Notes: generated by a model not told the origin, from the sequence alone. Positions 1,474-52,006 are shown, counted from the first letter of the stretch. The stretch: 64,000 nucleotides of DNA from an uncultured Actinomycetes bacterium (GCA_963704725.1 OY969934.1:1504001-1568000); one strand, 5' to 3'. A program made the numbers and translations.

Positions 1474-1576
1474 CTGACCTGCGGAAGCGCGCCGGGGAGG
1501 GATCGAACCTCCGACCCGCTGCTTAGAAGGCAGCCGCTCTATCCACTGAGCTACCGGCGCTCGCTGACCTGCGGAA
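1474..1576. repeat. 13-bp direct repeat CTGACCTGCGGAA on both sides of tRNA-Arg (1474-1486 and 1564-1576)
   Basis: Exact 13-mer read directly on both flanks of the tRNA. Confidence 0.9.
1488..1560 (-). tRNA. tRNA-Arg (TCT)
   Basis: Reverse complement GCGCCGGTAGCTCAGTGGATAGAGCGGCTGCCTTCTAAGCAGCGGGTCGGAGGTTCGATCCCTCCCCGGCGCG folds as a cloverleaf. Anticodon TCT, GTTCGA T-loop, no encoded CCA. Confidence 0.96.
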
Positions 1577-1714
1577 CCGCGCTCTTCGGCGATTGCATGC
1601 CGCATGGAGATTGTAAGCACATCAGACCTGACAACTGAGGTAACGAGCATGCAGGGTCGTAGACGACCTGTTCGCCCGGTGGAGACCGGCGACCGCGAAC
1701 AACCCCGTCAGACG

Positions 1715-2722
1715 CTAGCCCTGACGCTTGTAGCGACTCGCTCGGTATTCATCGACCCAGTTGCGTGTGCTCCGCCACTGGCCTCGCTCGTCTCGTTGCG
1801 CTCGCAGGCGTCCGCGCTCGGCCGCCGCGCGGAGGGCACGGGCCGTGATCTCACGATCGGCGAGCGCGGCGAGCGGCACGAGTCTCGCCGGTCCCGCAAC
1901 GGCGGGCACGATGAAGCGCATGAGCGTGTCGATGATCGCCCGAGCGATGAACTCGCCGAGCGGACCGGGATCCCCCGCGTCGGCTCGCCGAAGTGCCGTC
2001 AGGTATCGGGTCCGTTCCGCCTTGCGGATGATCGCGGGCGGGTACCCGAGCCGTATCAAGAGGAGGTTCGTCACGAGGCGGCCCGTCCTGCCGTTGCCAT
2101 CTAGGAACGGATGGATCCGCTCGAACTCCGCGTGGATGGCAGCGAGGGCCTCGGGGAAGGGCCCCTCGGCTTCGCGAAGGGCCGACGCTCGGGCGACCCA
2201 GTCGGTCGTTAGCGCTTGGACCTCGGGCCAGTCCGGGGGCCGCATGCCGCCGGGGAAGGGGTGGATGTTGTGCTGTCGGAGCGAGCCCGGCCCTTCGTTC
2301 GGGGCGGCGTCCGGGTGTGGCGCGACCTCCCACACCTTCGATATCGCAAGCGTGTGGACGTGTCGAACTTCGGTCAGCGAGATGAGGTCGCCGGTCGTCC
2401 AGTCGCCCGGGGACAGGCCCTGCTGGTACACCCATTGGGCCGCGTCCGCGTACCCCCGGACCTCCAGGTACTCGGCGAGCTGCTTGTCACCGATCGCCCT
2501 GCCCTCGCGCAGCAGGATCTCGACCTCTCGGAGGACGAGCGTGTTGCCCTCGATCGCCGTCGAGTTGTGGGCCTCCTGGAACCAGATGTCCCCCCAGATG
2601 TCCTCCGCCTCGACGGGGGAGGGGAGGCCGCCGAGGCGGCTTCGCAGCTCCTGGACACCCTCGGTGAGCTGCGCGTAGATCGCCTCTCGGCTCCGGCGGC
2701 CTCCGCGGCGCTCGACAGCCAT
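1715..2722 (-). CDS. Fic family protein (AMPylase-type) with N-terminal inhibitory motif and probable C-terminal helix-turn-helix
   Basis: Canonical Fic motif HPFLDGNGRTGR. STAIEGN matches the (S/T)xxxE(G/N) inhibitory helix. The C-terminus LVPLAALA...ARALRAAAERGRLRAQRDERGQWRST resembles an excisionase-like HTH. ATG at 2722 lies 6 nt after TACCCT. Confidence 0.9.
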   Translation of the reverse strand: MAVERRGGRRSREAIYAQLTEGVQELRSRLGGLPSPVEAEDIWGDIWFQEAHNSTAIEGNTLVLREVEILLREGRAIGDKQLAEYLEVRGYADAAQWVYQQGLSPGDWTTGDLISLTEVRHVHTLAISKVWEVAPHPDAAPNEGPGSLRQHNIHPFPGGMRPPDWPEVQALTTDWVARASALREAEGPFPEALAAIHAEFERIHPFLDGNGRTGRLVTNLLLIRLGYPPAIIRKAERTRYLTALRRADAGDPGPLGEFIARAIIDTLMRFIVPAVAGPARLVPLAALADREITARALRAAAERGRLRAQRDERGQWRSTRNWVDEYRASRYKRQG

Positions 2723-2743
2723 GGAGCCAGGGTAGCGCAGATG

Positions 2744-2838
2744 TTGTGTCGCTGTCGGCGAACAAACGAGCACGACACAAAGTAGCTGCCGCGGAGGTTT
2801 GTGTCGTGGGGGCCCCAGAAGAATCGGCACGACACAAA
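2744..2838. promoter_or_regulatory. Four alternating-orientation CACGACACAAA boxes upstream of the Fic gene (candidate operator)
   Basis: TTGTGTCG 2744-2751, CACGACACAAA 2771-2781, TTTGTGTCGTG 2798-2808, CACGACACAAA 2828-2838. The repeats are seen directly; the operator role is inferred. Confidence 0.6.
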
Positions 2839-3048
2839 CCGCCGGTCCGTGTGAGAGGCGACCAGCCCCCTGCGAGCACCTGTCACGCTTTGCTCTTGCG
2901 CGTGATCGGACGGCGCGAGGCTCACCTGTTGTCGTCGACGCGCTATTCGGCCACTCGCATCACCTGGCCCAGTTCGACGGCCACCCGGGTCGAGAGCGCG
3001 TATGACACGACCTGTGAGCGCTGCCGCGCCTGCAGGTACATGAGCATT

Positions 3049-3064
3049 CCGAACACGGGTTTGG
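3049..3064. promoter_or_regulatory. Candidate LexA/SOS box
   Basis: CCGAAC-ACGG-GTTTGG versus the Gram-positive/actinobacterial core CGAAC-N4-GTTCG (one mismatch), in an intergenic position. Confidence 0.4.
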
Positions 3065-3124
3065 AGATCGATTCGACGGGGGATGCTGGTCTTTCTGTCC
3101 GTGTCCGGACGGTAGGAGTTCGAG

Positions 3125-3355
3125 ATGACCGCTTCAGTCGAGGGGCGCCTGCGGTCGACAACTCTCGAAAGACGTGGGGGTCGAAGGCGTGACCGGATGG
3201 TGAAGCTGCTCATCGGGTGGGCGGTGGTCTCCGTACCCGTCGGGGTGCTCGTCGGAACGGCCATCCGACTCCGCGAGCGCTCTCCGGAGACCCGGATCTC
3301 CAGGCAGGACCGGGACATCGAGCCCGACGAGGCTCCCCGCCGGGCCGCGAGCTAG
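3125..3355 (+). CDS. Small single-pass membrane protein (hypothetical)
   Basis: AGGAG upstream of ATG 3125. Hydrophobic segment LLIGWAVVSVPVGVLVGTAI. An alternative start (MVKLLIG) is possible. Confidence 0.5.
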   Translation: MTASVEGRLRSTTLERRGGRRRDRMVKLLIGWAVVSVPVGVLVGTAIRLRERSPETRISRQDRDIEPDEAPRRAAS

Positions 3356-3419
3356 GCACCACACGATCGCCAGATCATCCCGAGCCGGCCGGGGCGGTCG
3401 CGCCGGTATCGTCGACCAC

Positions 3420-4106
3420 ATGTTCCGCCGTGCTCTCTCCTTCGTCGCCGCCCTGACGGTCGCAGCCGGCCTGGCCGCCTGTGCGCAGAGCCAGCCGGAC
3501 CCTCCGGCCGGCGCCCGCAGGATCACGATCCGAACGCCGGACGGCGAGCGGCTCGTCGCGGTCGAGCTCGGGGGAGGCGATCGGGTCGCGGTGCTGTCCC
3601 ACGGGGCGACGGGGACGAAGGAGGACTTCTACGGCCTCGCCTCGGCGTTCGCCGACGCCGGCTGGCTCGCGATCGCCTACGACGCGCGCGGCGTGGGCGA
3701 CTCCACGGGGGCACGCGGCGAGAGCCGCGACGTGGACCTTCGGGCGGTGGTCGAGTGGGCCCGGTCGGAGGGTGCGGTCTCGATCGTCCTGGTCGGCGGC
3801 TCGCTCGGGGCCTCGCTCTCGGTCGCGATGGCGGCCGAGCTCGAGGCCGACGCCGTGGTCAGCCTGTCGGCGCCGGCCGATGCGTTCGGGGCGCTGGCCG
3901 CGGCGGGGGATCTGCGCGACCGGATCCCGGTGTTCGTCGCCGCGGCGAAGGACAACCAGCCCTACGCCGACGATGCCCGGGCCATCGCCGACGCACTCGG
4001 CGTCGAGCCGACGATCGTCACCGGCCGGGGCCACGGCACGGGGATGTTTCTCGACCACCCCGATCTCGTGGACACCGTCGTCGAGTTCGCGACCTCGAGC
4101 GTGTGA
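3420..4106 (+). CDS. Alpha/beta hydrolase lipoprotein
   Basis: Signal peptide with lipobox LAAC. SHG oxyanion region, YDARG, nucleophile elbow GGSLG, C-terminal GHG. Confidence 0.85.
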   Translation: MFRRALSFVAALTVAAGLAACAQSQPDPPAGARRITIRTPDGERLVAVELGGGDRVAVLSHGATGTKEDFYGLASAFADAGWLAIAYDARGVGDSTGARGESRDVDLRAVVEWARSEGAVSIVLVGGSLGASLSVAMAAELEADAVVSLSAPADAFGALAAAGDLRDRIPVFVAAAKDNQPYADDARAIADALGVEPTIVTGRGHGTGMFLDHPDLVDTVVEFATSSV

Positions 4107-4112
4107 CGGCTC

Positions 4113-4490
4113 TCACGCGGCCCGCAGGACCAGGAAGCCGGTGACCCGCATCGCGCGCAGGAGGGGCCGGATCAGGGGCGGCGCGATCGCCGCCCGGACG
4201 TCGGTCACGATGCGCGGATCCTCGAGCGCGACCACGAGTCCCCGGGTCTCCACCTCGCACCGACCGGCGGCCATGACGTTGTGGACCCAGTCGCGATCGA
4301 CCCCGTACGTGAGCGCGATCACGTAGCGCTCACCCGATCGGAAGAGGTTGACCGGTGTTCGGTACCGGCGCCCGCTCCGCCGGCCGACGTGCCGCACGAC
4401 GGCGAAGCCCGGCAGATGGCCGGCGAACCTGCGGGACACGGCGTTGGTGCCTCGGCGGTTGAACCTGGCGAGCCATCCGGGGAGTGGCAT
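4113..4490 (-). CDS. Nitroreductase family deazaflavin (F420)-dependent oxidoreductase
   Basis: HVGRRSGRRYRTPV and YGVDRDWVHNVMAAG motifs typical of DDN-like proteins. Confidence 0.85.
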   Translation of the reverse strand: MPLPGWLARFNRRGTNAVSRRFAGHLPGFAVVRHVGRRSGRRYRTPVNLFRSGERYVIALTYGVDRDWVHNVMAAGRCEVETRGLVVALEDPRIVTDVRAAIAPPLIRPLLRAMRVTGFLVLRAA

Positions 4491-4529
4491 CTCAGGCGGG
4501 ACTACCCGTTCGGGCGACCGGGCACGCGA

Positions 4530-5174
4530 TCAACCCTGCAGGATCTGACGCTTCTGGGCCTCGAACTCCTCGTCGGTGAGCACGCCCTGCTCCTTCAGCT
4601 TGGCCAAGCGCTCGAGCCGGGCCAGCCGCTCGTCCACGACGTCGTCCTCGGCGGGTGGCGCCGGAGGAGGCGGCGGCGCAGCGCCGCCCTGCTGGGCCGC
4701 GAGCGCGTCCGGATCGATGCCGAGCATCCGGAGCTTGGCCTTCTGCTCCTCGGAGATCTGGGACAGATCCCGGCCGGACAGGTTCACCACCATCGGACCG
4801 CCCGCTCCGCCCGCGGGTGTCCCGGTGGGCGCTCCCTCGCCCCGCATCATCGCCGCGAGGTTCTCCGCGCTCTGGCGGGACCGGTCCCCGGACGACTGAA
4901 CCTCGTCCCACTCGATGTCGACGCGCTGCGGGTCGGCCCGGTCCACGGTCACGGGCAGGACCATGCCCGGCATCGGCCAGCGGTCGCGGTGCACGAGCCC
5001 GTGGTGCGCGACGGCCGTGGGCGGGACGCCCTCTGCCTGCACGACGAACTGGATCGTGCACATCTGGAGCACGCCGCGGCCTCGGTTCATCGACGCGGAG
5101 ACCACCTGGGCGGTCCCTCGGACCGGGTCGCGCATGCCCCCGGCGCCGCCCTTGAGCAGATCCTTCAACCCCAT
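4530..5174 (-). CDS. SHOCT domain-containing protein
   Basis: C-terminal LERLAKLKEQGVLTDEEFEAQKRQIL is a SHOCT signature. Start at MGLKDLLKG (5174). Confidence 0.8.
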   Translation of the reverse strand: MGLKDLLKGGAGGMRDPVRGTAQVVSASMNRGRGVLQMCTIQFVVQAEGVPPTAVAHHGLVHRDRWPMPGMVLPVTVDRADPQRVDIEWDEVQSSGDRSRQSAENLAAMMRGEGAPTGTPAGGAGGPMVVNLSGRDLSQISEEQKAKLRMLGIDPDALAAQQGGAAPPPPPAPPAEDDVVDERLARLERLAKLKEQGVLTDEEFEAQKRQILQG

Positions 5175-5247
5175 CGCGGCGCGGAGCGTACCGTGCCGCG
5201 GGGGCCGATGGGTGGGGCGGAGGCACGGCGGTAGCGGGCGGAAGCGC

Positions 5248-5679
5248 CTACAGGGCCGGCGTGCCGAGGATCTTGCGGGTCCGCCGGGCCATGCCCTCGA
5301 GCAGCTTGAGCCCGAGATCCGGCTCCTCACGCAGGAGCCGGCGGAAGGCGGTGCGCTCGATCCGGATGGTCACGAGGGGTGTCGCGGCGATCACGGTGGC
5401 CACCCGCTCGCCCCCGTCCAGGAGCGCGAGCTCGCCGAAGAAGTCGCCCGGCCCGAGCTCGGCCTCGCCCCGGGCGGTCACGATCTTGCCCTTCACGACC
5501 TTGGCCCGCCCCTCCACGATCACGTAGAAGGCCCGTCCCGGGTCGTCCTTCTTCACGATGACCCGGCCGGCGTTGTAGGCGGTCTGCTCGGCGAGGGCGG
5601 CGACCCGCCCGAGCTGGGTGCGCGACAGCCCCGCGAACAGGGGGACCTGCGACAGGAGCTGGATCTCGGGGCGCGGCAC
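5248..5679 (-). CDS. Stand-alone cyclic nucleotide-binding domain protein
   Basis: LSQVPLFAGL, FYVIVEG and the phosphate-binding cassette GDFFGELALLDGGERVATV. No HTH (143 aa). Confidence 0.88.
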   Translation of the reverse strand: MPRPEIQLLSQVPLFAGLSRTQLGRVAALAEQTAYNAGRVIVKKDDPGRAFYVIVEGRAKVVKGKIVTARGEAELGPGDFFGELALLDGGERVATVIAATPLVTIRIERTAFRRLLREEPDLGLKLLEGMARRTRKILGTPAL

Positions 5680-5810
5680 GCGGGTATTTCACCAGCCGGC
5701 GGCCGACCTGACAGCCGCGCGTGCCTGGGCTGCTGGGGGGTACGGTGTAGTGCAGCGCGGCGGAGAGGGCGCCGCGGCTTCTGCACGCTCGAAGGGGGAT
5801 CGGCATCGCG

Positions 5811-7813
5811 ATGACCGAGGAACGTCCGCGCGTCGCCCAGCGGCGCGGCACCTCCGCGGCCGACGGGGCCCGCGTCGTCGTCGAGGGGCTGTGGCCCGAG
5901 ATCGACGCCGGCAGGTTCCCCATCAAGCGGATCCCCGGCGAGACGGTCTCCGTCGAGGCCGACGTGTTCGGCGACGGGCACGACCTGGTCGCGGCTGCGC
6001 TGCGCTACCGGCTCGCCGGCGAACGCGAATGGCGGGAGACGCGGATGGAGCCGCTCGGCAACGACCGGTTCCGAGGGCGCTTCTCGGTCGAGGCTCTCGG
6101 CGAGTACCGGTACTCCGTGTCGGGGTGGATCGACCGCTTCGAGACCTGGCGTCGAGACCTGCGCACGAAGGTGGACGCCCGTCGCGACGTCGCGGGCGAG
6201 CTGCTGGTCGGCGCCGAGCTCGCGGCGGCCGCGGCCCGGCGGGCGTCCGGTCGCGAGCGCGATCTGCTCAAGGACGCCTCGCGGGCGCTCGCCGGGGACG
6301 ACGCCGCCCGGGCCCTCGAGGTCGCGCTCGACGAGAAGCTCCGCGAGCTGATGTCGGCCTATCCCGACCGGCGGCAGCAGGGCGCCTTCCCTCGGGAGCT
6401 ACGCGTCGTGGTCGACCCGCCGCGGGCGCGGTTCGGGGCGTGGTACGAGCTGTTCCCCCGCTCGACCTCGACCGAGCCGGGGCGGCACGGGACGTTCGAC
6501 GACGTGATCGCGCGACTGTCCTACGTGGAGGAGCTGGGGTTCGACGTCCTGTACCTGCCGCCGATCCATCCGATCGGCCACGCGCGGAGGAAGGGCCCGA
6601 ACAACGCCCCGTCGAGGAGCCGCGACGACCCCGGGAGCCCGTGGGCGATCGGCGCGGCCGAGGGCGGGCACACCGCGGTCCACCCGGACCTCGGGACGAT
6701 CGAGGACTTCGAACGGCTGGTCGCGGCGGCCGGGCGCCGGGGGATCGACGTGGCGATCGACGTGGCGTTCCAGTGCACGCCCGAGCACCCGTGGGTCCGC
6801 GAGCACCCCGAGTGGTTCCGCCACCGGCCCGACGGCGAGATCATGCATGCCGAGAACCCACCGAAGGTCTACGAGGACATCTACCCGCTCGACTTCGAGA
6901 CGAAGGACCGGCGGGGCCTGTGGGACGCCCTCCGAGACGTCGTGCGGTTCTGGTGCGATCGGGGCGTGCGCGTCTTCCGCGTCGACAACCCGCACACGAA
7001 GCCGTTCGCGTTCTGGGAGTGGCTGATCGCCGAGATCAAGGCCGAGCACCCCGACACGATCTTCCTGGCCGAGGCGTTCACGCGGCCGAAGGTGATGTAC
7101 CGGCTCGCCAAGCTCGGGTTCACGCAGTCCTACACGTACTTCACGTGGCGCAACAGCAAGCACGAGCTCACCGAGTACGTCACCGAGCTCACGCGGACCG
7201 GCGCGGTCGAGTTCTTCAGGCCGAGCTTCTGGCCGAACACGCCCGACATCCTGCACGCGTTCCTGCAGGCGGGCCCCCGGAGCGCGTTCGAGATCCGGCT
7301 GATCCTGGCCGCGACCCTCTCGTCCATCTACGGGATCTACGGCCCGGAGTTCGAGCTGATGGAGCACACGCCGCGCGAGCCCGGATCGGAGGAGTACCGG
7401 GGCTCGGAGAAGTACGAGATCCGGCGCTGGGACCTCGAGCGGCGGGACAGCCTGGCCCCGATGATCGGCATGGTGAACCGGATCCGGCGCGAGAACCCCG
7501 CGCTGCAGGACAACCGGAGCCTGCGCTTCCACGGCGTCGGGAACGATCAGCTCATCGCGTACAGCAAGTCGACCGAGGACCGCTCGAACGTGATCCTGAG
7601 CATCGTGAACCTCGACCCGCGCTCCGCGCAGTCGGGGTGGACGTCCCTGGACCTGGGTGAGCTCGGCGTTCCGGGCGACGAGCCGTTCGAGGTCGAGGAC
7701 CTGCTCACGGGGGCGGTCTACGTGTGGTCCGGCCCCGGCAACTTTGTCCAGCTCGATCCGGTGGATGCGGTGGCCCACGTGCTCAGGGTCCGGCCGGCGG
7801 GAGGACCCGCGGC

Positions 7814-7817
<4 letters not shown>
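5811..7817 (+). CDS. glgE: Alpha-1,4-glucan:maltose-1-phosphate maltosyltransferase GlgE
   Basis: WYELFPRS, YLPPIHPIG, AENPPKVYEDIYP, FRVDNPHTKP, LAEAFTRP and NTPDIL motifs. Confidence 0.96.
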
Positions 7818-11142
<3,325 letters not shown>

Positions 11143-11146
<4 letters not shown>

Positions 11147-15113: not shown

Positions 15114-15132
15114 CCCCCGTGGCGAGCGCGGC

Positions 15133-17247
<2,115 letters not shown>

Positions 17248-17324
17248 GCGCTCGAGCAGCGAAGCGGTAGCGCCACGGTCGCGAGGTCGCCCCGCGACGT
17301 CGCGACCGGCTTAGGATCGGCGGG

Positions 17325-18884: not shown

Positions 18885-18911
18885 CCGGCCCGCCCGATAC
18901 GCTTGCGCCCG

Positions 18912-20818: not shown

Positions 20819-20889
20819 GCGGGCGTAGCTCAATGGCAGAGCTCCAGCCTTCCAAGCTGGTCATGCGGGTTCGATTCCCGTCGCCCGCT
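20819..20889 (+). tRNA. tRNA-Gly (TCC)
   Basis: GCGGGCGTAGCTCAATGGCAGAGCTCCAGCCTTCCAAGCTGGTCATGCGGGTTCGATTCCCGTCGCCCGCT cloverleaf, with -10-like TAGGCT upstream. Confidence 0.96.
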
Positions 20890-21206
20890 CCGCTGCTCAG
20901 GGCGCGTCTTCGCAGGTCAGACGTCTGATCGGGGGCGCGCTCGCCTTCTCGCTGCCACGCAGCGTTGCTCGTCGTTTCGTGCTCTCGCCCGGAACGGATG
21001 CGGGACAGGCCGGGACGTGCCCGGAGCAGCAGACGGGTCCCCAGCGTCCCTCCTCGAATCGAGGAGGCCATCGTCGATCGCCTCGACGCGTTGCTTCGCG
21101 CGTCCCTCCAGGTTGAGTTGGCCGCCGGCTAACGCCTTGGCTCTGGGCGCGAGCGCGCGGCAGATGGGTGTTGCATTGGCTTAGCCGGAAAGGCGGAGGC
21201 GCCGAT

Positions 21207-22154
21207 GTGAACTCCGTGCGACGCGTCCAACGCCCCCCCGCCGGCGTCGGCCTCATGGCTGGCCTGTTTGCGTTCGTGGCCCTGAGCGCTCTCTTCATGG
21301 GCGGCGCCGCGCTATCCGCCGATGCTGATCGAACGAATCGAATCATCGCGATCGGGATGTTCGTCTCGCTGCTCGCCTCGTCGGTCGTGCTCGCGAGGTC
21401 GCTCTTCCTGGCCGTCTTCGGCAGTCGGATCGCCGCGCGACGCTGGTCGCGGATCAACCGCGAGCTGCATGACTTGGGGTTCCGGGATGCGGTGCCTCAC
21501 GAGGTGAGCGACACCCTGGGTCTTCCAGTCCAAGTGCTTGCGCCGTACATGCTGGCGCGAAGGAGGGGGGGCGGGATCGACCACCTAACGCTTGGAGAGG
21601 TCGACGGGCGCGAGATTCGTTGCTTCAACGTGCGGATTCGAGGCGGCGGTTGGGTTGATGTCCCTGCTGTGGCCATGAAGATCGACGCCTCCCTCTCGGC
21701 AACCGTGATCCGGCCCTTCAAGAGCCCGATTGCGCCTCGCCCCGACATGAAACGGGCCCTATTCGAGCATGAGGAGTTCAATCGCTCGGTTGCCGTCTTC
21801 TCGGTCGACGCGTTCTTCGCGAGCGCGATGGTTGATGCTCGGATGATGGATTGGCTCCGCAGGAACCTCCGGAGGACGACCATCGAACTCGCCGACCGGT
21901 GGGTGATCGCCTGGAACTGGCCCGGCCGCAGATTCGGTCGACGCCCCTTGGAACTCATCGACCTGCTTCTCGACTTCGATGGGCGAATCCCGCGCGCTCT
22001 CCCCTCGTTGTTCCCCGGGCGACATGACCACACAAGGTGGCGCCACCGGGCCGCGAGGTCGTCGATACGAGCCCCGGTCGACCAGGCGCGGAGCGAGCGC
22101 GGAACAGAGCGGATGACGGTGCGTTTGCGCAGGTCAGGGCTTAAGAAGTTCTAG
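21207..22154 (+). CDS. Hypothetical membrane protein (2 N-terminal TM segments), islet cargo
   Basis: ORF 21168..22154. GTG at 21207 follows GGAGG. The stop overlaps the att-like repeat. Confidence 0.65.
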   Translation: MNSVRRVQRPPAGVGLMAGLFAFVALSALFMGGAALSADADRTNRIIAIGMFVSLLASSVVLARSLFLAVFGSRIAARRWSRINRELHDLGFRDAVPHEVSDTLGLPVQVLAPYMLARRRGGGIDHLTLGEVDGREIRCFNVRIRGGGWVDVPAVAMKIDASLSATVIRPFKSPIAPRPDMKRALFEHEEFNRSVAVFSVDAFFASAMVDARMMDWLRRNLRRTTIELADRWVIAWNWPGRRFGRRPLELIDLLLDFDGRIPRALPSLFPGRHDHTRWRHRAARSSIRAPVDQARSERGTERMTVRLRRSGLKKF

Positions 22155-22190
22155 CCTTCCAAGCTGTCATGCGGGTTCGACTCCGTCACC
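22153..22190 (+). repeat. attR-like degenerate copy of the tRNA-Gly 3' half
   Basis: AGCCTTCCAAGCTG-TCATGCGGGTTCGACTCCGTCACC versus tRNA AGCCTTCCAAGCTGGTCATGCGGGTTCGATTCCCGTCGCC. Confidence 0.88.
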
Positions 22191-22226: not shown

Positions 22227-22535
22227 CTAGGCGAAGAGCCGAGCGATCGCCGTCCCTGCCGCCGCCACGACCACCACCACCAGGAGCGGTGCCTTCCGCC
22301 ACAGTGCGATCGCGGCGGCGGCCACGCCGATCAGCCGGGCGTCGAACGCGAGCGCTTGGCCGTTCCCGAACGTCTGCACGGCGACGAGGGCGCCGAGGAG
22401 CGCCGGTGCGAGGAGCTCGACGACCCCGGTCAGGCGAGGGGGGAGAGGCCGCCCGCCGAGCAGGACCGGACCGGCCGCCTTGATCGCCACGGTCCCGACG
22501 CCCACGAGCGCCACGACGAGCCAGGTGTCGCTCAT
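22227..22535 (-). CDS. azlD: AzlD-domain branched-chain amino acid transporter small subunit
   Basis: 102-aa hydrophobic protein (LLAPALLGALVAVQ, DARL) coupled to the AzlC-like gene. Confidence 0.82.
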   Translation of the reverse strand: MSDTWLVVALVGVGTVAIKAAGPVLLGGRPLPPRLTGVVELLAPALLGALVAVQTFGNGQALAFDARLIGVAAAAIALWRKAPLLVVVVVAAAGTAIARLFA

Positions 22536-23203
22536 CGCCGTGCTCCGAGGAGACAGGCCGCGCTCGCCGCAACGATCGGTACGCCGGCGGGTGCGACCGG
22601 TGTGAGCGCGAGGGCGATCGCTCCGCCGAGGAGCGCCGCCTGGACCGGACGCCGCCCGCGGAGCTGCGGGACGAGCAGCGCGAGGAACAGCGCCGGGAAC
22701 GCCGCGTCGAGCCCGATCGTGGAGGGATCACCGAGCGCCTCCCCGCCGAACGCTCCGATCGCGGTGCCGGCCAGCCAGCTCACATACAGCACGAGGCCTG
22801 CGCCGATCAGCACGCGGGGGTCGAACCGGCCGTCGCCCTCGGCCGCGACCGCCCAGGACTCGTCCACGACCAGCTGGGAGTGCAGGAGGCGGGAGAGCGT
22901 CGACCCCTCGAGGTAGGGAGCGACCGAGACGCCGATCGGTCCGTACCGGGAGTTCAGCAGGATCGCCGCGGTGACGGCGGCCGCCACCGTCCCACCGTCG
23001 CCGAGGATCGAGACGGCGGCGAACTGCGCGGAGCCGGCGAACGTCGTGGCCGACATCACGATCGGCGCCAACCAGCCGAGACCGGCCGCGCGAGCGAGCA
23101 CGCCGAACGAGACGCCGAACCCGACGACGGCGACGGCGAGGGGGGCGACGGCCCTGGCCCCGTGGCGGTACCCCTTCGATGCGATCCCGGCCTCCCGGCT
23201 CAC
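22532..23203 (-). CDS. azlC: AzlC family amino acid exporter permease
   Basis: GVSFGVLA, MSATTFAGSAQF, LLNSRY, VDESWA and GLDAAFPALFLALL motifs. Confidence 0.88.
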   Translation of the reverse strand: MSREAGIASKGYRHGARAVAPLAVAVVGFGVSFGVLARAAGLGWLAPIVMSATTFAGSAQFAAVSILGDGGTVAAAVTAAILLNSRYGPIGVSVAPYLEGSTLSRLLHSQLVVDESWAVAAEGDGRFDPRVLIGAGLVLYVSWLAGTAIGAFGGEALGDPSTIGLDAAFPALFLALLVPQLRGRRPVQAALLGGAIALALTPVAPAGVPIVAASAACLLGARR

Positions 23204-23400
23204 GGTCCGATCCGAGGCCAGTCTCCCGGTTCGCGCGAGTCGACGCCCGCCGCCGAGGCCGCCGCGCCGACGACGCCGAGCGCGGCGGGCACCGCCACCA
23301 ACGCCCATCCGGCCGCCCACCCGATCGCGGTGACCGCGACCAGCAGGAGGACGACCAGGCCGGCTCGAGCGGACCCATCGGGAGAGGGACGCCGGTCCAT
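23200..23400 (-). CDS. Small hydrophobic protein (66 aa) coupled to azlC
   Basis: Strong RBS AAGGAGG before ATG 23400. Stop overlaps the azlC GTG. Two hydrophobic runs. Confidence 0.6.
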   Translation of the reverse strand: MDRRPSPDGSARAGLVVLLLVAVTAIGWAAGWALVAVPAALGVVGAAASAAGVDSREPGDWPRIGP

Positions 23401-23551
23401 CGCAACCTCCTTCCGGTCCGCGCCATCCAATCCCCCCACCAATCGGGCTTGTGACGACGCGTCTCAGGGGCGATACTCGACCCCTACGCCAGACCATTTC
23501 TACGGCCAATCGAGCCAGATTGGAATGAAGATGGCCACGTACCCCGCTGCG

Positions 23552-25027
23552 ATGCCGGGATCCACCCCCACGGCTCCGACCCTCACCGGGTGGACGAGCG
23601 CGTCATCCGGTCCGCTGTACCGGCGCCTGGCCGAGGCGATCCGGGCCGCGATCCGCCGCGGCGAGCTCCTGAGCGGGTCCCGCTTGCCCACCGAACGGGC
23701 GCTCGCCTCCGAGCTCTCGGTGAGCCGGAGCACGGTGGTCGCCGCCTACGACCTCCTCCGCGGGGAGGGGTGGCTCGAGAGCCGGCAGGGGAGCGGGACG
23801 TGGGTCCGGCGCCACGCCTCGGTCGTGCGATTCGGCGAGGACCGGCCGGGGTTCCTCGGCCGGTCGACGGTGACCTTCCGCGCGTTGATCGAGGGGCCCG
23901 GCGAGGGCATCGAGTTCACGACCGCCGCGCTGACGGCCGGCGACCTGTTCGAACGCCCCTCGATCGCCCGGGCGGTGGAGGACCTCGCGTCGTTCGCCCG
24001 CTCGGCGATCGGGTACGAGGCCGTCGGCCATGGGCCGCTTCGCGCCGCGATCGCGGATCACCTCACGCGCCGGTGGTACCTGCCCACCGCCGAGGAGGAG
24101 GTCATCGTGACCACGGGCGCCCAGCAGGCCATCGGGCTGGCGGCGTCGCTGTACGCCAGGCCCGGCGAGGTCGTCGCCGTCGAGGACCCGACGTACCTCA
24201 CTGCGATCGACGTGTTCACGGCCGCCGGCGTCCGCCTGCTCCCGATCCCCATCGGCGTCCAGGGGATGCGGCCGGAGCGCCTGCGCGAGGTGCTGCGCGA
24301 GTCTGCGCCCCGGTTCACCTACCTCATGCCCACGTACCAGAACCCGACGGGCGCCTCGATCCCCGAGCGGGAACGCCGCGAGATCGCGTTCCTCGCCGAG
24401 GAGCTCCAGGTCCCGATCGTCGAGGACCTGACCGTCGCCGACCTGTACCTGGGGGACCCGCCCCCGCCTCCCATCGGGGCCTTCCAGGGCGAGGTCCCGG
24501 TGCTCACGATCGGTTCGCTGTCCAAGGTCTTGTGGGGTGGGCTCCGGGTCGGTTGGATCCGCGCCCCCGCCCCCGTGATCCAGCGGCTGGGACGGATGAA
24601 GCTCGTCATGGATCACGGCAGCTCGACCGTGAGCCAGATCCTGGCGCTCCGGCTGATGGGCGAGCTCGACGAGGTCGCGGACGAGCGCCGCGCCCTGGTC
24701 CGCGAGCGGAAGGACCGGCTCGAGGGCCTCCTGCGAGAGCTCCTGCCTACGTGGACGTGGGACCCGCCGGCCGGCGGGCTCTGCCTGTGGGTGCGGCTGC
24801 CGGCCGGCGACGCGACGTCGCTCTCCCACGTCGCCACGCGCCACGGCGTGACGCTCGTCCCCGGGCCGATGACGTCGGTGGACGGCAACTTCGGCGACCG
24901 CGTGCGCCTGCCGTTCGTGCTCGAGCCGGGGGAGATGCGCGAGGGCGTGGAGCGGCTGGCGCGAGCGTGGGCGGAGTACGAGCCGACCATCGGCGCCGCA
25001 CCGAGGGCCGTCCGCGTCGTCGTCTGA
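23552..25027 (+). CDS. MocR/GabR family regulator (GntR wHTH plus PLP aminotransferase-like domain)
   Basis: RLPTERALASELSVSRSTVVAAYDLL, TTGAQQA, PTYQNPTG and GSLSKVLWGGLRVGW motifs. Start uncertain (23525, 23531 or 23552). Confidence 0.92.
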   Translation: MPGSTPTAPTLTGWTSASSGPLYRRLAEAIRAAIRRGELLSGSRLPTERALASELSVSRSTVVAAYDLLRGEGWLESRQGSGTWVRRHASVVRFGEDRPGFLGRSTVTFRALIEGPGEGIEFTTAALTAGDLFERPSIARAVEDLASFARSAIGYEAVGHGPLRAAIADHLTRRWYLPTAEEEVIVTTGAQQAIGLAASLYARPGEVVAVEDPTYLTAIDVFTAAGVRLLPIPIGVQGMRPERLREVLRESAPRFTYLMPTYQNPTGASIPERERREIAFLAEELQVPIVEDLTVADLYLGDPPPPPIGAFQGEVPVLTIGSLSKVLWGGLRVGWIRAPAPVIQRLGRMKLVMDHGSSTVSQILALRLMGELDEVADERRALVRERKDRLEGLLRELLPTWTWDPPAGGLCLWVRLPAGDATSLSHVATRHGVTLVPGPMTSVDGNFGDRVRLPFVLEPGEMREGVERLARAWAEYEPTIGAAPRAVRVVV

Positions 25028-36663: not shown

Positions 36664-36720
36664 GATTCCACGCACGAGGCCGCGCGCCGGGCGCGGCCGT
36701 TCGGCTCAGGGGACGGGGGC

Positions 36721-37982
<1,262 letters not shown>

Positions 37983-37986
<4 letters not shown>

Positions 37987-41582: not shown

Positions 41583-41630
41583 GGTTCCCCGAGTCTAGGG
41601 GGACCCGAGCGCCCCGTTAAACTCGGCGCC

Positions 41631-44174: not shown

Positions 44175-44176
44175 CC

Positions 44177-45469: not shown

Positions 45470-45870
45470 CCGTCGAATCGACACTGCTCATCGTCAAGCC
45501 TGACGGCGTTCGGCGAGGACTGGTCGGCGAGGTGCTCCGCCGGGCGGAGGCGAAGGGGCTGCACATCGCCGAGATGAGGATGCTGCAGATCGATCGGGCC
45601 CTCGCCGACGAGCACTACGGCGAGCACCGGGAGAGGGCGTTCTTCGACGAGCTCGTGAGCTTCATCACGTCGGGTCCGGTGGTCGTGGCCCGCCTGGAGG
45701 GCGAGGGCGCGATCGATGTCTGGCGCACGCTCATGGGACCGACCGATCCGGCGAAGGCGCCGCCCGGCACGATCCGGGGCGATCTGGGCCTCATCATCAC
45801 GGAGAACGTCGTGCACGGCAGCGACTCGCCCGAGTCCGCCGAGCGCGAGCTCAAGCTCTTCTTCGGCTGA
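45466..45870 (+). CDS. ndk: Nucleoside diphosphate kinase
   Basis: KPDGV, PGTIRGD and NVVHGSDS motifs. Confidence 0.97.
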   Translation: MTVESTLLIVKPDGVRRGLVGEVLRRAEAKGLHIAEMRMLQIDRALADEHYGEHRERAFFDELVSFITSGPVVVARLEGEGAIDVWRTLMGPTDPAKAPPGTIRGDLGLIITENVVHGSDSPESAERELKLFFG

Positions 45871-45876
45871 CGCCGC

Positions 45877-47490: not shown

Positions 47491-47494
47491 GGCG

Positions 47495-48739
47495 TCAGTC
47501 GAGCCGGCGGAACGCCACGCACGCGTTGTGCCCGCCGAAGCCGAACGAGTTCGACATCGCCAGCCGGACGTCCAGGGGGCGGGCCTCGTTGGCGACGTAG
47601 TCCAGGTCGCAGTCCTCGTCGGGCGTCTCGTAGTGGACGGTCGGCGGCACGAGACCGCGCTCGATCGCCAGCGCGCACGCGGCGCCCTCCACGGCACCGG
47701 CGGCCCCGAGCATGTGCCCGGTCATCGACTTGGTGGAGGAGATCGGCACGCGGTGGGCGACCTCGTCGCCGAGCGCGGCCTTGATGGCGGCGGTCTCGGC
47801 GGCGTCGTTCAGCTGCGTCGAGGTGCCGTGCGCGTTCACGTAGGAGACCGCGGCGGGCTCCTCCTCTGCGTCGCGGAGCGCCCAGGCCATCGCGAGCGCG
47901 GCGCCCGAGCCCTTGGGGTCGGGAGCCGTGATGTGGAACGCGTCGTCCGAGGCGCCGTAGCCGGCGACCTCGCAGTAGATCCGCGCCCCCCGGGCAAGCG
48001 CGTGGCGCTCGGACTCCAGCACGAGGGAGCACGCGCCCTCGGAGAGCACGAACCCGTCGCGGGCCTTGTCGAACGGACGGGAGGCGGTCTCCGGGTCGGG
48101 GTTCTTGGTGAGCGCCGTCATCTGCGCGAACGCCGCGACCGTGAGGCGGAGGGTGGCGGCCTCGGAGCCGCCGGCGATGGCCAGATCCAGGTAACCGTCG
48201 CGGATGTAGCGGAGTGACTCGCCGATCGCGTGGTTCGACGACGAGCACGCAGAGACCGTGCACAGGTTGGGCCCGGTGAAGCCGTACCGCATGGCGATGT
48301 GCCCGCTCGCGGCGTTGGCCATGAGCGCCGGCACCATGAACGGCGACACGCGGCCCGGACCCTTCTCGAGCAGGACGCTGTGCTGGGTGAGGAGCGTCTG
48401 GATGCCGCCGATGCCGGTGGCGAAGACCACGCCCGCGCGTTCCGCGGGGGCCTCGGGCTTGCCGGCGTCCTCCCACGCGAGCGCGGCGGCCGCCAGGGCG
48501 TAGTGGACGAACCTATCGGTGCGGCGGATCTCCTTGCGGTCGAGCCACAGGCTCGGGTCGAACCCCGGCACCTCGCCCGCGACCTTCACCGGAAGGTCGG
48601 AGGTGTCGAACGCGGTGATGGCGCGGATCCCGTTGCGACCGGTGGTCAGCCCCGTCCAGAAGTCCTCGACCCCCACGCCGACGGGCGTGACGGGGCCGAT
48701 CCCGGTGACGACGACGCGATCGCGGTCGGGCCGAGCCAT
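47495..48739 (-). CDS. fabF: 3-oxoacyl-ACP synthase II
   Basis: VVVTGIG, SACSSS, PFDKARDGFV, NAHGTST, STKSMTGHMLGA and SNSFGFGGHN motifs. Confidence 0.95.
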   Translation of the reverse strand: MARPDRDRVVVTGIGPVTPVGVGVEDFWTGLTTGRNGIRAITAFDTSDLPVKVAGEVPGFDPSLWLDRKEIRRTDRFVHYALAAAALAWEDAGKPEAPAERAGVVFATGIGGIQTLLTQHSVLLEKGPGRVSPFMVPALMANAASGHIAMRYGFTGPNLCTVSACSSSNHAIGESLRYIRDGYLDLAIAGGSEAATLRLTVAAFAQMTALTKNPDPETASRPFDKARDGFVLSEGACSLVLESERHALARGARIYCEVAGYGASDDAFHITAPDPKGSGAALAMAWALRDAEEEPAAVSYVNAHGTSTQLNDAAETAAIKAALGDEVAHRVPISSTKSMTGHMLGAAGAVEGAACALAIERGLVPPTVHYETPDEDCDLDYVANEARPLDVRLAMSNSFGFGGHNACVAFRRLD

Positions 48740-48744
48740 GGGCC

Positions 48745-48993
48745 CTAGGACATCCCCAGCTTCTGCTCGACGAGGGCCACGGCCTGTCCCACCGTCTTCA
48801 CGCCCTCCATCTCCTCCTCGGGGATCTCGATGTTCCACTCCTCCTCGAGCGCGAGGACCGCCTCCACCAGGTCCAGCGAGTCCGCGTTCAGGTCCTCCGC
48901 GAACCGCGCGTCCGGGATGACCTGGGCCTCGTCCACCGCGAGCTGCTCGGCGAGGACCTTGCGGACCCGCGTCTGGATCTCTTCCTTGTCCAT
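48745..48993 (-). CDS. acpP: Acyl carrier protein
   Basis: Phosphopantetheine site DLNADSLDLVE; RBS AAGGAGG. Confidence 0.96.
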   Translation of the reverse strand: MDKEEIQTRVRKVLAEQLAVDEAQVIPDARFAEDLNADSLDLVEAVLALEEEWNIEIPEEEMEGVKTVGQAVALVEQKLGMS

Positions 48994-49053
48994 CGTGTTC
49001 CTCCTTGTTCCCCCCTGCGCCGGCCCATGCTATGGGCTCGGCGCGCACCGCGA

Positions 49054-49800
49054 CTAGGCCGTGAGACCGCCGTCGACCGGTAGGGCGACGCCGTTCACGT
49101 ACGAGGCCTCCTCCGACATGAGGAAGCGCACGACGCCCGCCACCTCGTCGAGCCGGCCGGTCCTGCCGAGCGGCGTCTGCTCGAGGTACACGGCGCGGGC
49201 CTCGTCCGTGAGGTGTGACGTCATGTCGGTGTCGAGCAGGCCCGGGCAGATCGCGTTCACCGTGATGCCCTTGACGCCGACCTCGCGGGCCAGGGACTTC
49301 GTCAGCCCGACGAGCGCCGACTTCGACGCCGCGTACGCGGTCTGGCCGGCGTTGCCTCGGATCGCCACGGCCGAGGACAGGTTGACGATCCGGCCCCACT
49401 TGGCCCGGAGCATCCCCCGCATCGCCGCCCGGCTGCACAGGAACGCTCCGCGGACGTTCGTGTCCATCGTGCGTGTGTACGCCTCGAGGTCGTACGTGAT
49501 CAGCAGGCCGTCCTTGGAGTACCCGGCGTTGTTCACGAGGCCCGTCACCGGGCCGAGCGTCAGCGCGACCTGCTTGAACGCCTCGGTCACCGAGTTCTCG
49601 TCGAGGGTGTCGAGATGGACGACCGAGCCCTCCCCGCCGTCGTCCGTGATGGCCTCGAGCGCCTCCTTGGCGTCGGTGTCGTTCGTCCGATAGCCGATCG
49701 CCACCGACCACCCGTCGGCCGCGAGCGCCTCGGCGCACGCCCGTCCGATGCCACGGGACGCGCCCGTGACGACGGCGACCCTGCGGGCCGGCGCGCTCAC
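49054..49800 (-). CDS. fabG: 3-oxoacyl-ACP reductase
   Basis: VTGASRGIG, NNAG, GNAGQTAYAASK and VDGG motifs. Confidence 0.93.
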   Translation of the reverse strand: MSAPARRVAVVTGASRGIGRACAEALAADGWSVAIGYRTNDTDAKEALEAITDDGGEGSVVHLDTLDENSVTEAFKQVALTLGPVTGLVNNAGYSKDGLLITYDLEAYTRTMDTNVRGAFLCSRAAMRGMLRAKWGRIVNLSSAVAIRGNAGQTAYAASKSALVGLTKSLAREVGVKGITVNAICPGLLDTDMTSHLTDEARAVYLEQTPLGRTGRLDEVAGVVRFLMSEEASYVNGVALPVDGGLTA

Positions 49801-50801
49801 GAGGCCGGCGGCCCGGTCCAGCGGATCAGGTTGGCGCCCCAGGCGAGCCCGGCCCCGAAGGACGTCAGGAGCACGAGGTCGCCCTCGTGGATGCGGCCGG
49901 CCCGCCACGCCCGGTCGAGCGCGATGGGGACCGATGCGGCCGACGTGTTGCCCACCGTCTCGACGTCCACGATCGCGCGCTCGAGCGGGATGCCGAGGCG
50001 CTCGGCCACGGCGATCATGATCCGGGCGTTGGCCTGGTGGGGGATCAGCAGGTCGACGTCGTCGGGTCCGAAGCCGGACTTGTCCAGGAGCTGGCGGCAG
50101 GCGTTCGCCATCTCGACCACCGCGCGCTTGAAGACCTCGCGGCCGTTGGGCATGCGGATCGAATGGTCGCGGGCCTCGACGGTCTCGCGGGTGGGCGGCC
50201 GGGCGGAGCCGCCCGCGGGGATGTACAGGATCTCGGCGGCCCGGCCGTCGGCGCCGAGGACGGAGCCGAGGATCCCGCCGGCCTCGGAGGGGCGCAGGAC
50301 GACGGCCCCGGCGCCGTCGCCGAACAGCACGCACGTGGTCCGGTCCGAGAAGTCCATGAAGCGCGACAGGACCTCGGCGCCGATCACGAGGATCGTCTCG
50401 GCCTGGCCGGATTCGATGAAGGCCGAGCCGGCCGAGAGCCCGTACGCGAACCCGGCGCACGCGGCGTTGAGGTCGAACGCAGGGGCCGTCACGCCGAGCT
50501 TGCGCTGGACCCAGACGGACGCGGCGGGGATCGGCGTGTCCGGCGTGAGCGTCGCGCACATGATCAGGTCGAGCTGCTCCGGGGCCACCCCGGCGGTCTC
50601 GAGCGCGATCCGGGCGGCGCCGACCGCCAGATCCGAGGTGGCCTCGCCGTCGGCAGCGAAGTGCCGCTCGCCGATGCCCGTGCGGTCGCGGATCCACTCA
50701 TCGCTGGTGTCGACGAGCTTCTCGAACTCCTGGTTCGTCACGACCCGGTCCGGGAGCACCGAACCCACCCCGGCCACGGTCGCGCGGCGCTGCGTGCTCA
50801 T
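49797..50801 (-). CDS. fabH: 3-oxoacyl-ACP synthase III
   Basis: DTSDEWIRDRTGI, AACAGF, FGDGAGA, PHQAN and GNTSAAS motifs. Confidence 0.96.
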   Translation of the reverse strand: MSTQRRATVAGVGSVLPDRVVTNQEFEKLVDTSDEWIRDRTGIGERHFAADGEATSDLAVGAARIALETAGVAPEQLDLIMCATLTPDTPIPAASVWVQRKLGVTAPAFDLNAACAGFAYGLSAGSAFIESGQAETILVIGAEVLSRFMDFSDRTTCVLFGDGAGAVVLRPSEAGGILGSVLGADGRAAEILYIPAGGSARPPTRETVEARDHSIRMPNGREVFKRAVVEMANACRQLLDKSGFGPDDVDLLIPHQANARIMIAVAERLGIPLERAIVDVETVGNTSAASVPIALDRAWRAGRIHEGDLVLLTSFGAGLAWGANLIRWTGPPAS

Positions 50802-50921
50802 GGACCCCCTCCCCGAGGCGGACCGTCGCCCGCCCTCGTAGGGGTCCGAGGATATCGTCCGGCGGCCCCAGACGCGGCCGTTCGGCTCCCGAAGCCCCCG
50901 AGGGCGTTCGGCGGCCGGTGC

Positions 50922-51839
50922 TCAGCCCAGCTCGGCGGCGAGGCGCCGGGCCTCCTCCGGCGAGCCCACGGCCACCGCCCGCGCGCCCGGGACGACGCGC
51001 TTGGCCAGCTTCGTCAGCACGTCGCCCGGGCCGGCCTCGACGAACACGTCGGCCCCACCGCCCCGGAGCGAGGCCGCGCACCGCTCCCACCGCACCGGCG
51101 AGACCACGTGTCGCTTCAGCAGGTCGCGGAGCTCCGACGGGTCGGTCACGAGCTCGCCGGTGACGTTGGCCGCGATCGGGAACCGGGGCGGCGAGAACGC
51201 GGCGGCGTCGATCGCGGAGGCGAGGGGAGCCACCGCGGGCTCCATGAGGGGCGAGTGGAACGCCCCGGCCACACTGAGGCGGACCGCCCGGATCCGCCGG
51301 GCAGACGCCAGCGCCTCCGCGCGCTCGACGGCCGGCACGCTGCCGCTGATCACCACCTGCTGCGGCGAGTTCTCGTTCGCGACGATCAGAACGTCCCCGT
51401 CGCGAACCTCGTCGCAGAGCTCGGCGGCTCGGCTCGCGTCCACGCCGAGCAGCGCCGTCATCGTCCCGGGTCGTTCCTGCCCGGCTCGCTGCATGGCGCC
51501 TCCCCGAACCACGACGATCCGCAGGGCCTCGGCGAGGTCGAGGACCCCGGCGGCCACCAGGGCCGAGAACTCGCCGAGGGAGTGGCCCGCGGCGCCCCCG
51601 AACGACGCCCCTTCGGCCTCCAGGACGCGGAACGCGGCGACCTCGAGGGCCAGCAGCGCCGGCTGGACGACGTCGGTCGTGGCCAGGGCGGCCTCGTCCC
51701 GGCAGGCGGTCACGACGTCCCGCCCCATCGCGGTCGAGGCCTCCTCGAGCGCGTCCTTGGATGCAGCGTGAGACATCCACGGGTCGGCCATCCCGGCGAA
51801 CTGTGAACCTTGACCTGGGAACACCACGGCGGCACTCAT
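50922..51839 (-). CDS. fabD: Malonyl-CoA:ACP transacylase
   Basis: FPGQGSQ, GHSLGE and VAGAFHS motifs. Start at MSAAVV (51839). Confidence 0.95.
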   Translation of the reverse strand: MSAAVVFPGQGSQFAGMADPWMSHAASKDALEEASTAMGRDVVTACRDEAALATTDVVQPALLALEVAAFRVLEAEGASFGGAAGHSLGEFSALVAAGVLDLAEALRIVVVRGGAMQRAGQERPGTMTALLGVDASRAAELCDEVRDGDVLIVANENSPQQVVISGSVPAVERAEALASARRIRAVRLSVAGAFHSPLMEPAVAPLASAIDAAAFSPPRFPIAANVTGELVTDPSELRDLLKRHVVSPVRWERCAASLRGGGADVFVEAGPGDVLTKLAKRVVPGARAVAVGSPEEARRLAAELG

Positions 51840-52006
51840 GCTGAGCCTCGTCTCGAGCGACGGTCGACCATCGACGCCGAACCCTACTTCGCCGGTCGAG
51901 GAGAAGGGAAACCGCAGGTCAGGCCATACGTAAACCCTCACCTTGCCTCAACCGACCGTCGAGGGTTGCCACTACCTTGAGGGTCATGTACAACACAGCC
52001 GAACCC

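Follow-up and report, generated by a model that had tools for sequence, protein, structure and literature searches.

The window analyzed here, a stretch of 64,000 nucleotides comprising bases 1,504,001-1,568,000 of the single 3.45-Mb contig (71% GC) of an uncultured soil Actinomycetota lineage, contains five exact copies of a 10-mer, CGCAGGTCAG, which lie on both sides of one tRNA gene, at the two ends of a small tRNA-anchored islet, and in the intergenic region upstream of mreB. By MreB, the named groups closest to this genome are Nitriliruptorales and Egibacteraceae, at just 77-80% identity. A preliminary description of the window had noticed the five copies and had put the chance expectation at about 0.3 per window; a pattern search confirmed the coordinates and strands, and dinucleotide shuffles (n = 100) contained 0.23 copies on average and never as many as five. 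Two copies bracket tRNA-Arg(tct) (1487-1560, minus strand; found by ARAGORN and Rfam) as direct repeats, and they extend, as had been noticed, to the identical 13-mer TTCCGCAGGTCAG. One (1474-1486, minus strand; 10-mer at 1474-1483) starts 1 nt, or 3 nt if counted from the core, past the tRNA 3' end and is oriented like it; the other (1564-1576, minus strand; 10-mer at 1564-1573) ends 3 nt before the tRNA 5' end. A gene of the Fic/DOC family (1715-2959, minus strand) lies directly upstream of this tRNA and is co-oriented with it.

Two further copies belong to a 1.3-kb islet of which tRNA-Gly(tcc) (20819-20891, plus strand; ARAGORN and Rfam) forms the intact attL-like side. A weak variant of the motif, CCGCTGCTCAG (20890-20900, plus strand), overlaps the tRNA 3' end at the same place as CCGCTGGTCAG in the attP of mycobacteriophage L5, and the exact copy cttCGCAGGTCAGac (20911-20920, plus strand) follows 19 nt past the tRNA. 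The single open reading frame (ORF) of the islet, a 315-aa cargo gene without a Pfam family (21207-22151, plus strand), overlaps with its last codons the next exact copy, gtttgCGCAGGTCAGgg (22128-22137, plus strand), which stands 9 nt ahead of a degenerate tRNA-Gly copy that runs from the anticodon stem to the T arm (22147-22184, plus strand) and looks like an attR-like relic. The layout is tRNA-N19-motif, one ORF, and motif-N9-tRNA fragment, and the islet is bounded by direct att-like repeats derived from the tRNA 3' part (20840-20878 versus 22147-22184; 90% and 95% identity in repeat searches, over 39 nt), in agreement with the att-like tRNA-Gly copy that had been recognized before. No recombinase was recognized in the islet, the sole ORF of which has no Pfam match, and the arm-like repeats that had also been attributed to it are unconvincing, as a repeat search gave only short, weak repeats. 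The islet is followed by a GntR-aminotransferase (MocR-type) frame (22484-25027, plus strand) with a long N-terminal extension in the stop-to-stop frame.

The fifth copy, gaaaCCGCAGGTCAGgc (51913-51922, plus strand), is located between a FabD-like acyltransferase gene (50922-51839, minus strand; PF00698, E = 1.6e-40) and the divergent mreB (51986-53095, plus strand). All five copies read towards the adjacent tRNA or mreB, as described before. The label "mreB promoter" that this copy had received is loose, however, because the motif, while indeed intergenic, is separated by about 45 nt from the conserved mreB −35 element downstream and abuts the divergent fabD promoter. The likely mreB core promoter, TTGCCA-17 nt-TACAAC (51966-51994, plus strand), is kept in nearly all loci of the family. 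The promoter in the fabD direction has a −10-like TAGGGT (51881-51886, minus strand) that is conserved family-wide; on this strand, 26 nt separate it from the end of the reverse-complemented motif upstream, a distance that would place the motif against the −35 position of that promoter. The "short A/T run" that had been seen 5' of each copy corresponds to the TTT of a wider consensus, GTTTCC, represented in the window by the variants TTCC, TTCC, CTTC, TTTG, and AAAC.

In the whole genome, the 10-mer is no more frequent than background (19 copies versus 12-16 expected with Markov orders 0 to 5), a result that counts against the idea first put forward as far as frequency is concerned, and the 13-mer with at most one mismatch is found 7 times, versus 6 times for its reversed control. 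Yet 5 of the 19 copies fall within 25 nt of a tRNA gene, where 0.015 would be expected (Poisson P = 5e-12), namely, on both sides of tRNA-Arg(tct) and at tRNA-Gly(tcc), tRNA-Val(gac), and tRNA-Leu(tag), the last in antisense to its tRNA. The enrichment at tRNA ends that had been suggested is therefore strong, and the signal in this genome is one of position rather than number. At g1059701-1067525 (L195) of this genome (G000), next to a serine recombinase gene at g1058257, 8 kb of DNA hold four motif or near-motif copies, and this may be another mobile region.

The 10- to 13-mer first noticed in one window is real, but the true element is about 19 nt long and phylum-wide. Based on 77 nonredundant viral instances, it is asymmetric and has the consensus gcGTTTCCGCAGGTCAG(A/G)G(G/C)(C/G), that is, gcGTTTCCGCAGGTCAGrGsc, and the 14 nt flanking it on each side hold no further conserved block. 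In the order, 159 of 294 genomes carry the exact 14-mer TTTCCGCAGGTCAG, with 280 matches in all (reversed control, 0), and in a phylum sample it is present in 65 of 251 Actinomycetota genomes, with 128 matches (control, 5); it is frequent in some families (12 of 14, 7 of 9, and 5 of 5 genomes, the last family having genomes of 7.5-9.2 Mb). Both tallies include some unpublished genomes, to which the loci L005 (G011), L032/L099, L035/L128 (L128 being from G067), L110 (G148), and L143-L145 belong; gene calls in relatives are crude GC3-based ORFs with Pfam annotation. In L110 (G148:C82), the motif is part of a 94-nt tandem repeat, every unit of which contains an exact copy amid many AGGCACA-like words. 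Thus, by these counts and the viral ones given below, the element is kept in many Actinomycetota families and their temperate phages.

To describe its settings, 53 distinct instances of TTCCGCAGGTCA were surveyed in 77 fetched loci of the order. About 21 of them fall at a single orthologous position in the atp operon promoter region, where a script assigned 14 and visual inspection 7. BLAST placed 11 beside a tRNA (1) or a tRNA fragment (10), visual inspection added one more of this kind (L051), and the remainder are scattered. In relatives, the extended form cgTTTCCGCAGGTCAg sits 0-3 nt before tRNA-Arg(tct) (e.g., L002, L004, L005, and L011), another family included, and it also occurs a few nucleotides past this tRNA (L002, L003, L006, and L008); bracketing or one-sided flanking is found in L002, L004, L005, L011, and L008, as well as in L158, and other relatives have an ordinary −10 box 7-9 nt upstream of tRNA-Arg(tct) in place of the motif. 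The tRNA genes of G000 are mostly without an encoded CCA, and most have a TAGACT/TAGAAT-type −10 box just 6-9 nt before the mature 5' end, which implies that their primary transcripts are almost leaderless; those with an upstream motif have a −10-like box about 30-38 nt away instead.

The islet layout of the window recurs in relatives as tRNA-motif, cargo, and motif-N15-37-tRNA fragment(-N6-motif), again without an integrase. At tRNA-Val(tac) in L126, islets are arranged in tandem (tRNA-N1-motif, cargo, motif-N37-fragment, cargo, motif-N25-fragment-N6-motif), and the same architecture is present at tRNA-Val(gac) in L036, L049, and L136, at tRNA-Met in L040 and L051, in L137, and in the large, Streptomyces-sized genomes of L318 and L319; in L128, a duplicated segment consists of the upstream flank, the motif, and the 5' half of tRNA-Pro. 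No integrase was found inside the islets of L126, L128, L036, L040, and L049. Such islets are of an ordinary kind, namely, integrase-less, tRNA-anchored cassettes. The two to three cassettes behind tRNA-Val(tac) in L126 (G163:C1:546500-562500) contain alpha/beta-hydrolase and adenylate-cyclase/AAA/TPR (STAND-like) genes, and a cyclase-domain gene is also found beside the tRNA-Met fragment in L040.

At three other motif-tRNA junctions (L158, L160, and L162), a small Xer-like integrase gene (304-332 aa; 494 aa as called in L158) lies divergently beside the tRNA 5' end, with the motif in between. One of these belongs to a 3.4-kb element beside tRNA-Val(gac) (positions 1908-5367 of L160, G031:C3:974000-980000) that has inverted 17-nt copies of the motif and spacer at its boundaries and encodes the 304-aa Xer-like integrase, a 251-aa ORF, and an ORF that is primase/Toprim-like by eye but has no Pfam match. 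The genome under study encodes two tyrosine recombinases, both Xer-like in size, and six serine recombinases, none of which adjoins a motif-tRNA junction; a cognate integrase for the Gly islet was not identified among them, and simple dif-like patterns gave no match in this genome. Other element families have left traces at tRNA genes as well. In L018 and L036/L100 (G028 and G025), a different family leaves GATGTCTCGGGACATCG-type arm repeats after tRNA-Arg(tct) and a tRNA-Val fragment. In G000, nearly identical flanks of about 45 nt follow tRNA-Ala(cgc), tRNA-Ala(ggc), and the tmRNA gene (g996034, g1570366, and g2598076, the second being about 2.4 kb past the right end of the window), and large serine recombinase genes stand beside two of these three loci and also beside tRNA-Glu(ctc) and tRNA-Leu(gag), which suggests that serine-integrase elements of one family occupy tRNA/tmRNA 3' ends.

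Phage genomes carry the same element. At least 119 IMG/VR stretches contain the exact 15-mer, 98 of them, among those listed, with a GC content of at least 0.60, versus 63 and 20, respectively, for the reversed 15-mer control. In 80 viral loci that were read, the motif typically lies amid short arm-like repeats that differ between phages (at least seven different repeat families around the same 15-mer), and other copies lie beside tRNA 3' parts. Ten scanned ORFs neighboring viral motifs included two integrases, one large terminase, and one ERF recombinase; the integrases are located directly downstream of the motif (L350 and L412), and for that of L350 Pfam gave only PF00589 and a SAM-like N-terminal domain. 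One group of viral matches consists of 242 phage records, 241 of which are named Mycobacterium phage. Among them, phage Kersh has two copies 50-100 nt from the right genome end, and a third variant of the same orientation precedes the small terminase gene, about 57 nt from the left end; cos is thus surrounded by three co-oriented copies. Upstream of the Kersh integrase gene, the tRNA-derived attP core also has motif-like sequences on both sides. In the first 50,000 bases of phage L5, the sole match to CCGCAGGTCAG with at most one mismatch lies directly after the tRNA-Gly part of attP (reversed control, 0), where the tRNA-Gly gene of the window has its weaker variant, and it precedes repeated TGCAAC-type sequences, which we take to be the arm sites.

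A further setting is that of host promoters. At the atp operon, the reverse complement of the motif lies between a Rex-like palindrome and the −35 element of the promoter TTGACG-N18-TATACT, which leads to a small gene and atpB. Among 30 loci found through AtpB, and thus sampled without bias, the reverse-complemented 14-mer is exact in 5, has at most three mismatches at the same spot in 10, and is recognizably degenerate in several more, and the reversed control never fell below four mismatches. The palindrome itself (TTGTGAA-N4-TTCACAA, resembling a Rex operator) is conserved upstream of the atp promoter order-wide (L042, L058, L108, and others; G000 g1420790-1420900), and the small gene that opens the operon seems to have no leader, its ATG lying about 7 nt past TATACT. 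At rpsA in this genome, the motif forms the promoter spacer (TTGACG-gtgTTTCCGCAGGTCAac-TACCAT); the spacer motif is exact in another family (L202) and has at most two mismatches at that spot in 6 of 30 loci, four further loci have matches with at most two mismatches further upstream, and five others have the reverse complement just upstream of the −35 element. The fabD/mreB copy is kept in 6 of 29 family loci, this genome counted, and the exact 14-mer points at mreB in another family, too (L043/L104).

Two distant families (L139 and L324) also have the motif upstream of the suf operon, and further copies are located upstream of dnaB (L326) and rtcB (L056), beside an OmpR-type regulator gene (L130), and at a TetR/glycosyltransferase locus (L121 and L141). 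In one locus of the order (L124), it stands about 120 nt upstream of the dnaA reading frame. A reading of some loci as oriC did not hold, as the two with DnaA-box-like sequences lie upstream of dnaB (L326) and between cyclophilin and DUF881 genes (L321) rather than between dnaA and dnaN. The atp, rpsA, fabD/mreB, and suf sites are held across families whose proteins are 40-60% identical, and we count the purifying selection that this conservation suggests at orthologous host sites as support for a host function.

The number of copies at tRNA genes raises the question of whether the motif is an accessory recombination site, bound by an integrase, an excisionase or recombination directionality factor (RDF), or a trans-acting recombinase of one tRNA-targeting element family, with the host copies as footprints of integration. 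Much of the tRNA evidence would suit this explanation: the 5 of 19 copies in this genome and the 11 (plus one by eye) of 53 instances in relatives, the copies on both sides of att cores, the Xer-like integrase genes at motif-tRNA junctions (L158, L160, and L162), the viral integrases directly downstream of the motif, and the L160 element with its inverted boundary copies. The host promoters speak against it, as the same sequence is found at orthologous non-tRNA places across families, and relics would not persist in this way at the atp, rpsA, fabD/mreB, and suf promoters. In addition, the motif accompanies many sets of arm-like repeats, at both tyrosine-integrase attP and cos, and the two tyrosine recombinases of this genome are not near any motif copy. 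An element-specific, arm-type integrase site is disfavored on similar grounds, the 15-mer lying amid at least seven families of arm-like repeats as well as at host promoters. We therefore regard the recombination-site explanation as unlikely, albeit worth keeping in mind.

A second alternative is that the signal acts in the transcript or at its start, either as a compact alternative-sigma promoter that initiates a few nucleotides downstream or as a processing or termination signal at tRNA ends. The spacing at tRNA genes gives it some appeal: upstream motifs stop 0-5 nt short of the mature 5' end, a region in which the ordinary tRNA genes of these genomes have their −10 box (7-9 nt upstream), downstream copies start 0-9 nt past the 3' end, and 9 of 11 intergenic copies in this genome point at a co-oriented gene or tRNA. 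However, both orientations relative to transcription occur at equivalent places, not least at the rpsA promoters. Copies that follow tRNA-Arg are in sense orientation in this order but antisense in two other families (L323 and L325), and antisense copies are also seen after tRNA-Met outside this order. The atp site of the family is conserved even though, read forward, it heads into the 3' end of a convergent gene; at rpsA, the motif does no more than fill the spacer of an ordinary −35/−10 promoter. Nor does it resemble the −10 and −35 hexamers at other tRNA genes of this genome. Overall, we consider a transcript-level signal rather improbable.

More specific promoter and terminator readings failed individually. 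A sigma-70-type promoter within the motif is ruled out by its spacer position between TTGACG and TACCAT at rpsA, and the motif is without the TAGACT-like boxes of ordinary tRNA promoters in this genome; extracytoplasmic function (ECF)-type −35/−10 readings are ruled out because there is no conserved partner within 14 nt; and a sigma B/F-type promoter (GTTT-N12-14-GGGTAT) fits a single locus, L046. An intrinsic terminator is ruled out by the lack of a hairpin or U-run, by control-level folding, and by the rarity of convergent contexts.

The distribution of instances gives the same picture at large. Outside ORFs lie 68 of 74 host instances (92%) and 61 of 66 viral ones, no class of context is rarer than the convergent, terminator-type one, and the gene on the 5' side of the motif runs away from it more often than not (44 versus 20 in hosts and 32 versus 16 on viral contigs), so that the reverse complement tends to be upstream of a gene start; these counts rest on crude gene calls, with orthologues incompletely removed. 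RNA folding of windows around 138 distinct instances did not differ from that of control windows, motif bases were paired no more often, and Rfam reported only tRNAs in the window and in 14 motif loci. A search for sequencing runs of this organism turned up no RNA data set and one DNA run, with a word share of 0.05. Given the independence of orientation, the mostly non-ORF placement, the absence of a folding excess, and the absence of an Rfam family, we favor a linear double-stranded DNA signal over an RNA element.

If a protein reads this signal, the actinobacterial integration host factor (mIHF/sIHF) is the obvious candidate, with a site preference at attP, promoters, and replication genes. 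The L5 attP variant, directly after the tRNA-Gly core and before the TGCAAC-type repeats, lies in the interval between core and arm sites where mIHF is said to act. The gene classes that are lowered on mIHF depletion, namely, many tRNAs, some ribosomal protein genes, and dnaA/dnaN, overlap the neighbors of the motif (PMC6155035). The same study describes no common motif among 153 chromatin immunoprecipitation (ChIP) peaks (PMC6155035), however, and a second study reports that mIHF bound oriC, attB, and a GC-rich control alike, with no specificity for attP (PMC10028186). Exact copies of the motif are, moreover, rare (0 to 1) in the 5- to 7.5-Mb genomes of family f41. We thus judge mIHF/sIHF to be a very improbable reader of the site, and with neither a ChIP motif nor specific attP binding reported for it, a different protein is probably involved. 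The last alternative, a GC-rich word recurring by chance or composition in one window, could draw on the background-level counts of the 10-mer and 13-mer in this genome, but it is refuted by the reversed-pattern controls in the order and the phylum (280 versus 0 and 128 versus 5 for the 14-mer) and by the tRNA-proximity test (P ~ 5e-12) and can practically be dismissed.

The explanation that we prefer, with a confidence somewhat short of even, is that the motif is the binding site of a sequence-specific host DNA-binding protein that phages and islets exploit. It appears to be the best reading because one long asymmetric site is held at housekeeping promoters, at tRNA ends, and at the att and cos sites of unrelated mobile elements, and because both orientations relative to transcription occur and RNA structure is lacking. 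The conservation, the placement, the independence of orientation, and the absence of RNA structure are observations; from them we infer that a protein binds the site, that it is encoded by the host, and that it bends or organizes DNA. The earlier suggestion of one host factor that would serve both integration and promoters is thus supported in part, as the comparative data agree with it better than with the alternatives. In this scheme, a single host protein would dock on the ~19-bp element and act at the DNA level. Its host sites would be those in or just upstream of housekeeping core promoters and directly against the ends of some tRNA genes, and mobile DNA that attaches at tRNA genes, be it an integrase-less islet like the 1.3-kb one at tRNA-Gly, a small element with an Xer-like integrase, or a temperate phage, would bear this site next to its att core, on one side or on both, and in some phages around cos as well. 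The host factor would then shape DNA for promoters, recombination, and packaging. More tentatively, and with doubts that outweigh our confidence, we propose that many Actinomycetota own a highly sequence-specific architectural protein, a functional counterpart of IHF/Fis in a phylum whose named integration host factor lacks specificity, and that its ~19-bp site in housekeeping promoters and at tRNA ends has been co-opted by temperate actinophages (attP and cos) and is also borne by the integrase-less cassettes that accumulate at tRNA genes.

Several points weigh against a host-protein site. The exact 14-mer is absent from several families of the phylum sample (0 of 18, 0 of 16, 0 of 9, and 0 of 9 genomes), and where it is present, related genomes are not independent and sampling by exact match favors orthologous copies. 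The atp site of this genome is itself degenerate, indicating that sites turn over, and no motif copy is found near its dnaA. The position relative to promoters is not fixed, as the motif serves as spacer, lies 0-14 nt or about 45 nt upstream of the −35 element, or is located in 5' untranslated regions or at tRNA ends, which would be unusual for a simple activator or repressor. The best-known candidate, mIHF, is disfavored by both its ChIP peaks and its attP binding as reported in the two studies cited above, and the candidate binding protein is one proposed from comparative data in an uncultured lineage.

If a protein of this kind exists, it would be a sequence-specific partner for site-specific integration and packaging in actinophages, with direct use for Streptomyces and mycobacterial integration vectors, and a regulator or organizer of core growth genes, including those for ribosomal protein S1, ATP synthase, tRNAs, and cell wall elongation, that soil actinobacteria, Streptomyces-sized genomes, and mycobacteriophage hosts have in common. 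Apart from any protein, the motif is of practical use as a marker by which att junctions, cos regions, and degraded islets can be located in the genomes and metagenomes of actinobacteria.

Full-text literature searches with 10-mers and 12-mers of the motif in both orientations returned only primers and unrelated sequences, and searches on mIHF (ChIP-seq, motif, and tRNA, as well as L5 attP) and on host factors at actinobacterial attP sites gave no description of it; a logo may have been published in figures or supplements, which text searches do not reach. Among known systems, mIHF/sIHF is similar in being a host factor that is needed for L5 integration and affects tRNA, ribosomal, and dnaA/dnaN expression (PMC6155035), and dissimilar in being reported as sequence independent, so that it is probably not the reader of the motif (PMC6155035, PMC10028186).

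Arm-type integrase and RDF sites resemble the motif in that they occupy the P and P' arms near a tRNA-derived core, often as direct repeats, but they are specific to each integrase family, whereas the motif is common to differing attP sites and is also found at cos and at host promoters. The concept of cis-mobilizable elements (CIMEs) and tandem tRNA-anchored islets describes the Gly islet of the window and the tandem islets of relatives at tRNA-Val, -Pro, -Met, and -Gly, with their att-like repeats, cargo, and lack of an integrase; it covers the islets rather than the motif, however, and would not lead one to expect a sequence in common with host promoters. Cluster A mycobacteriophages have stoperators that are likewise asymmetric, oriented, 13-bp intergenic sites, but these are bound by a phage repressor, number tens of copies per phage genome, and are not known to be conserved in hosts.

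The closest parallel is in E. coli and phage lambda, in which IHF and Fis sites occur in the attP arms that flank the core on either side, at cos, at replication genes, and within or upstream of host promoters, including those of stable-RNA genes. A classical IHF site was rejected, as the motif consensus has no resemblance to the E. coli IHF consensus, and no protein of the IHF/HU or Fis type is linked to the motif here, IHF homologues not having been searched for. The motif is unrelated in sequence, longer, and much less degenerate. What it shares with the IHF and Fis sites is the character of a short asymmetric site that is present in low copy number, lies between genes, and is used in either orientation.

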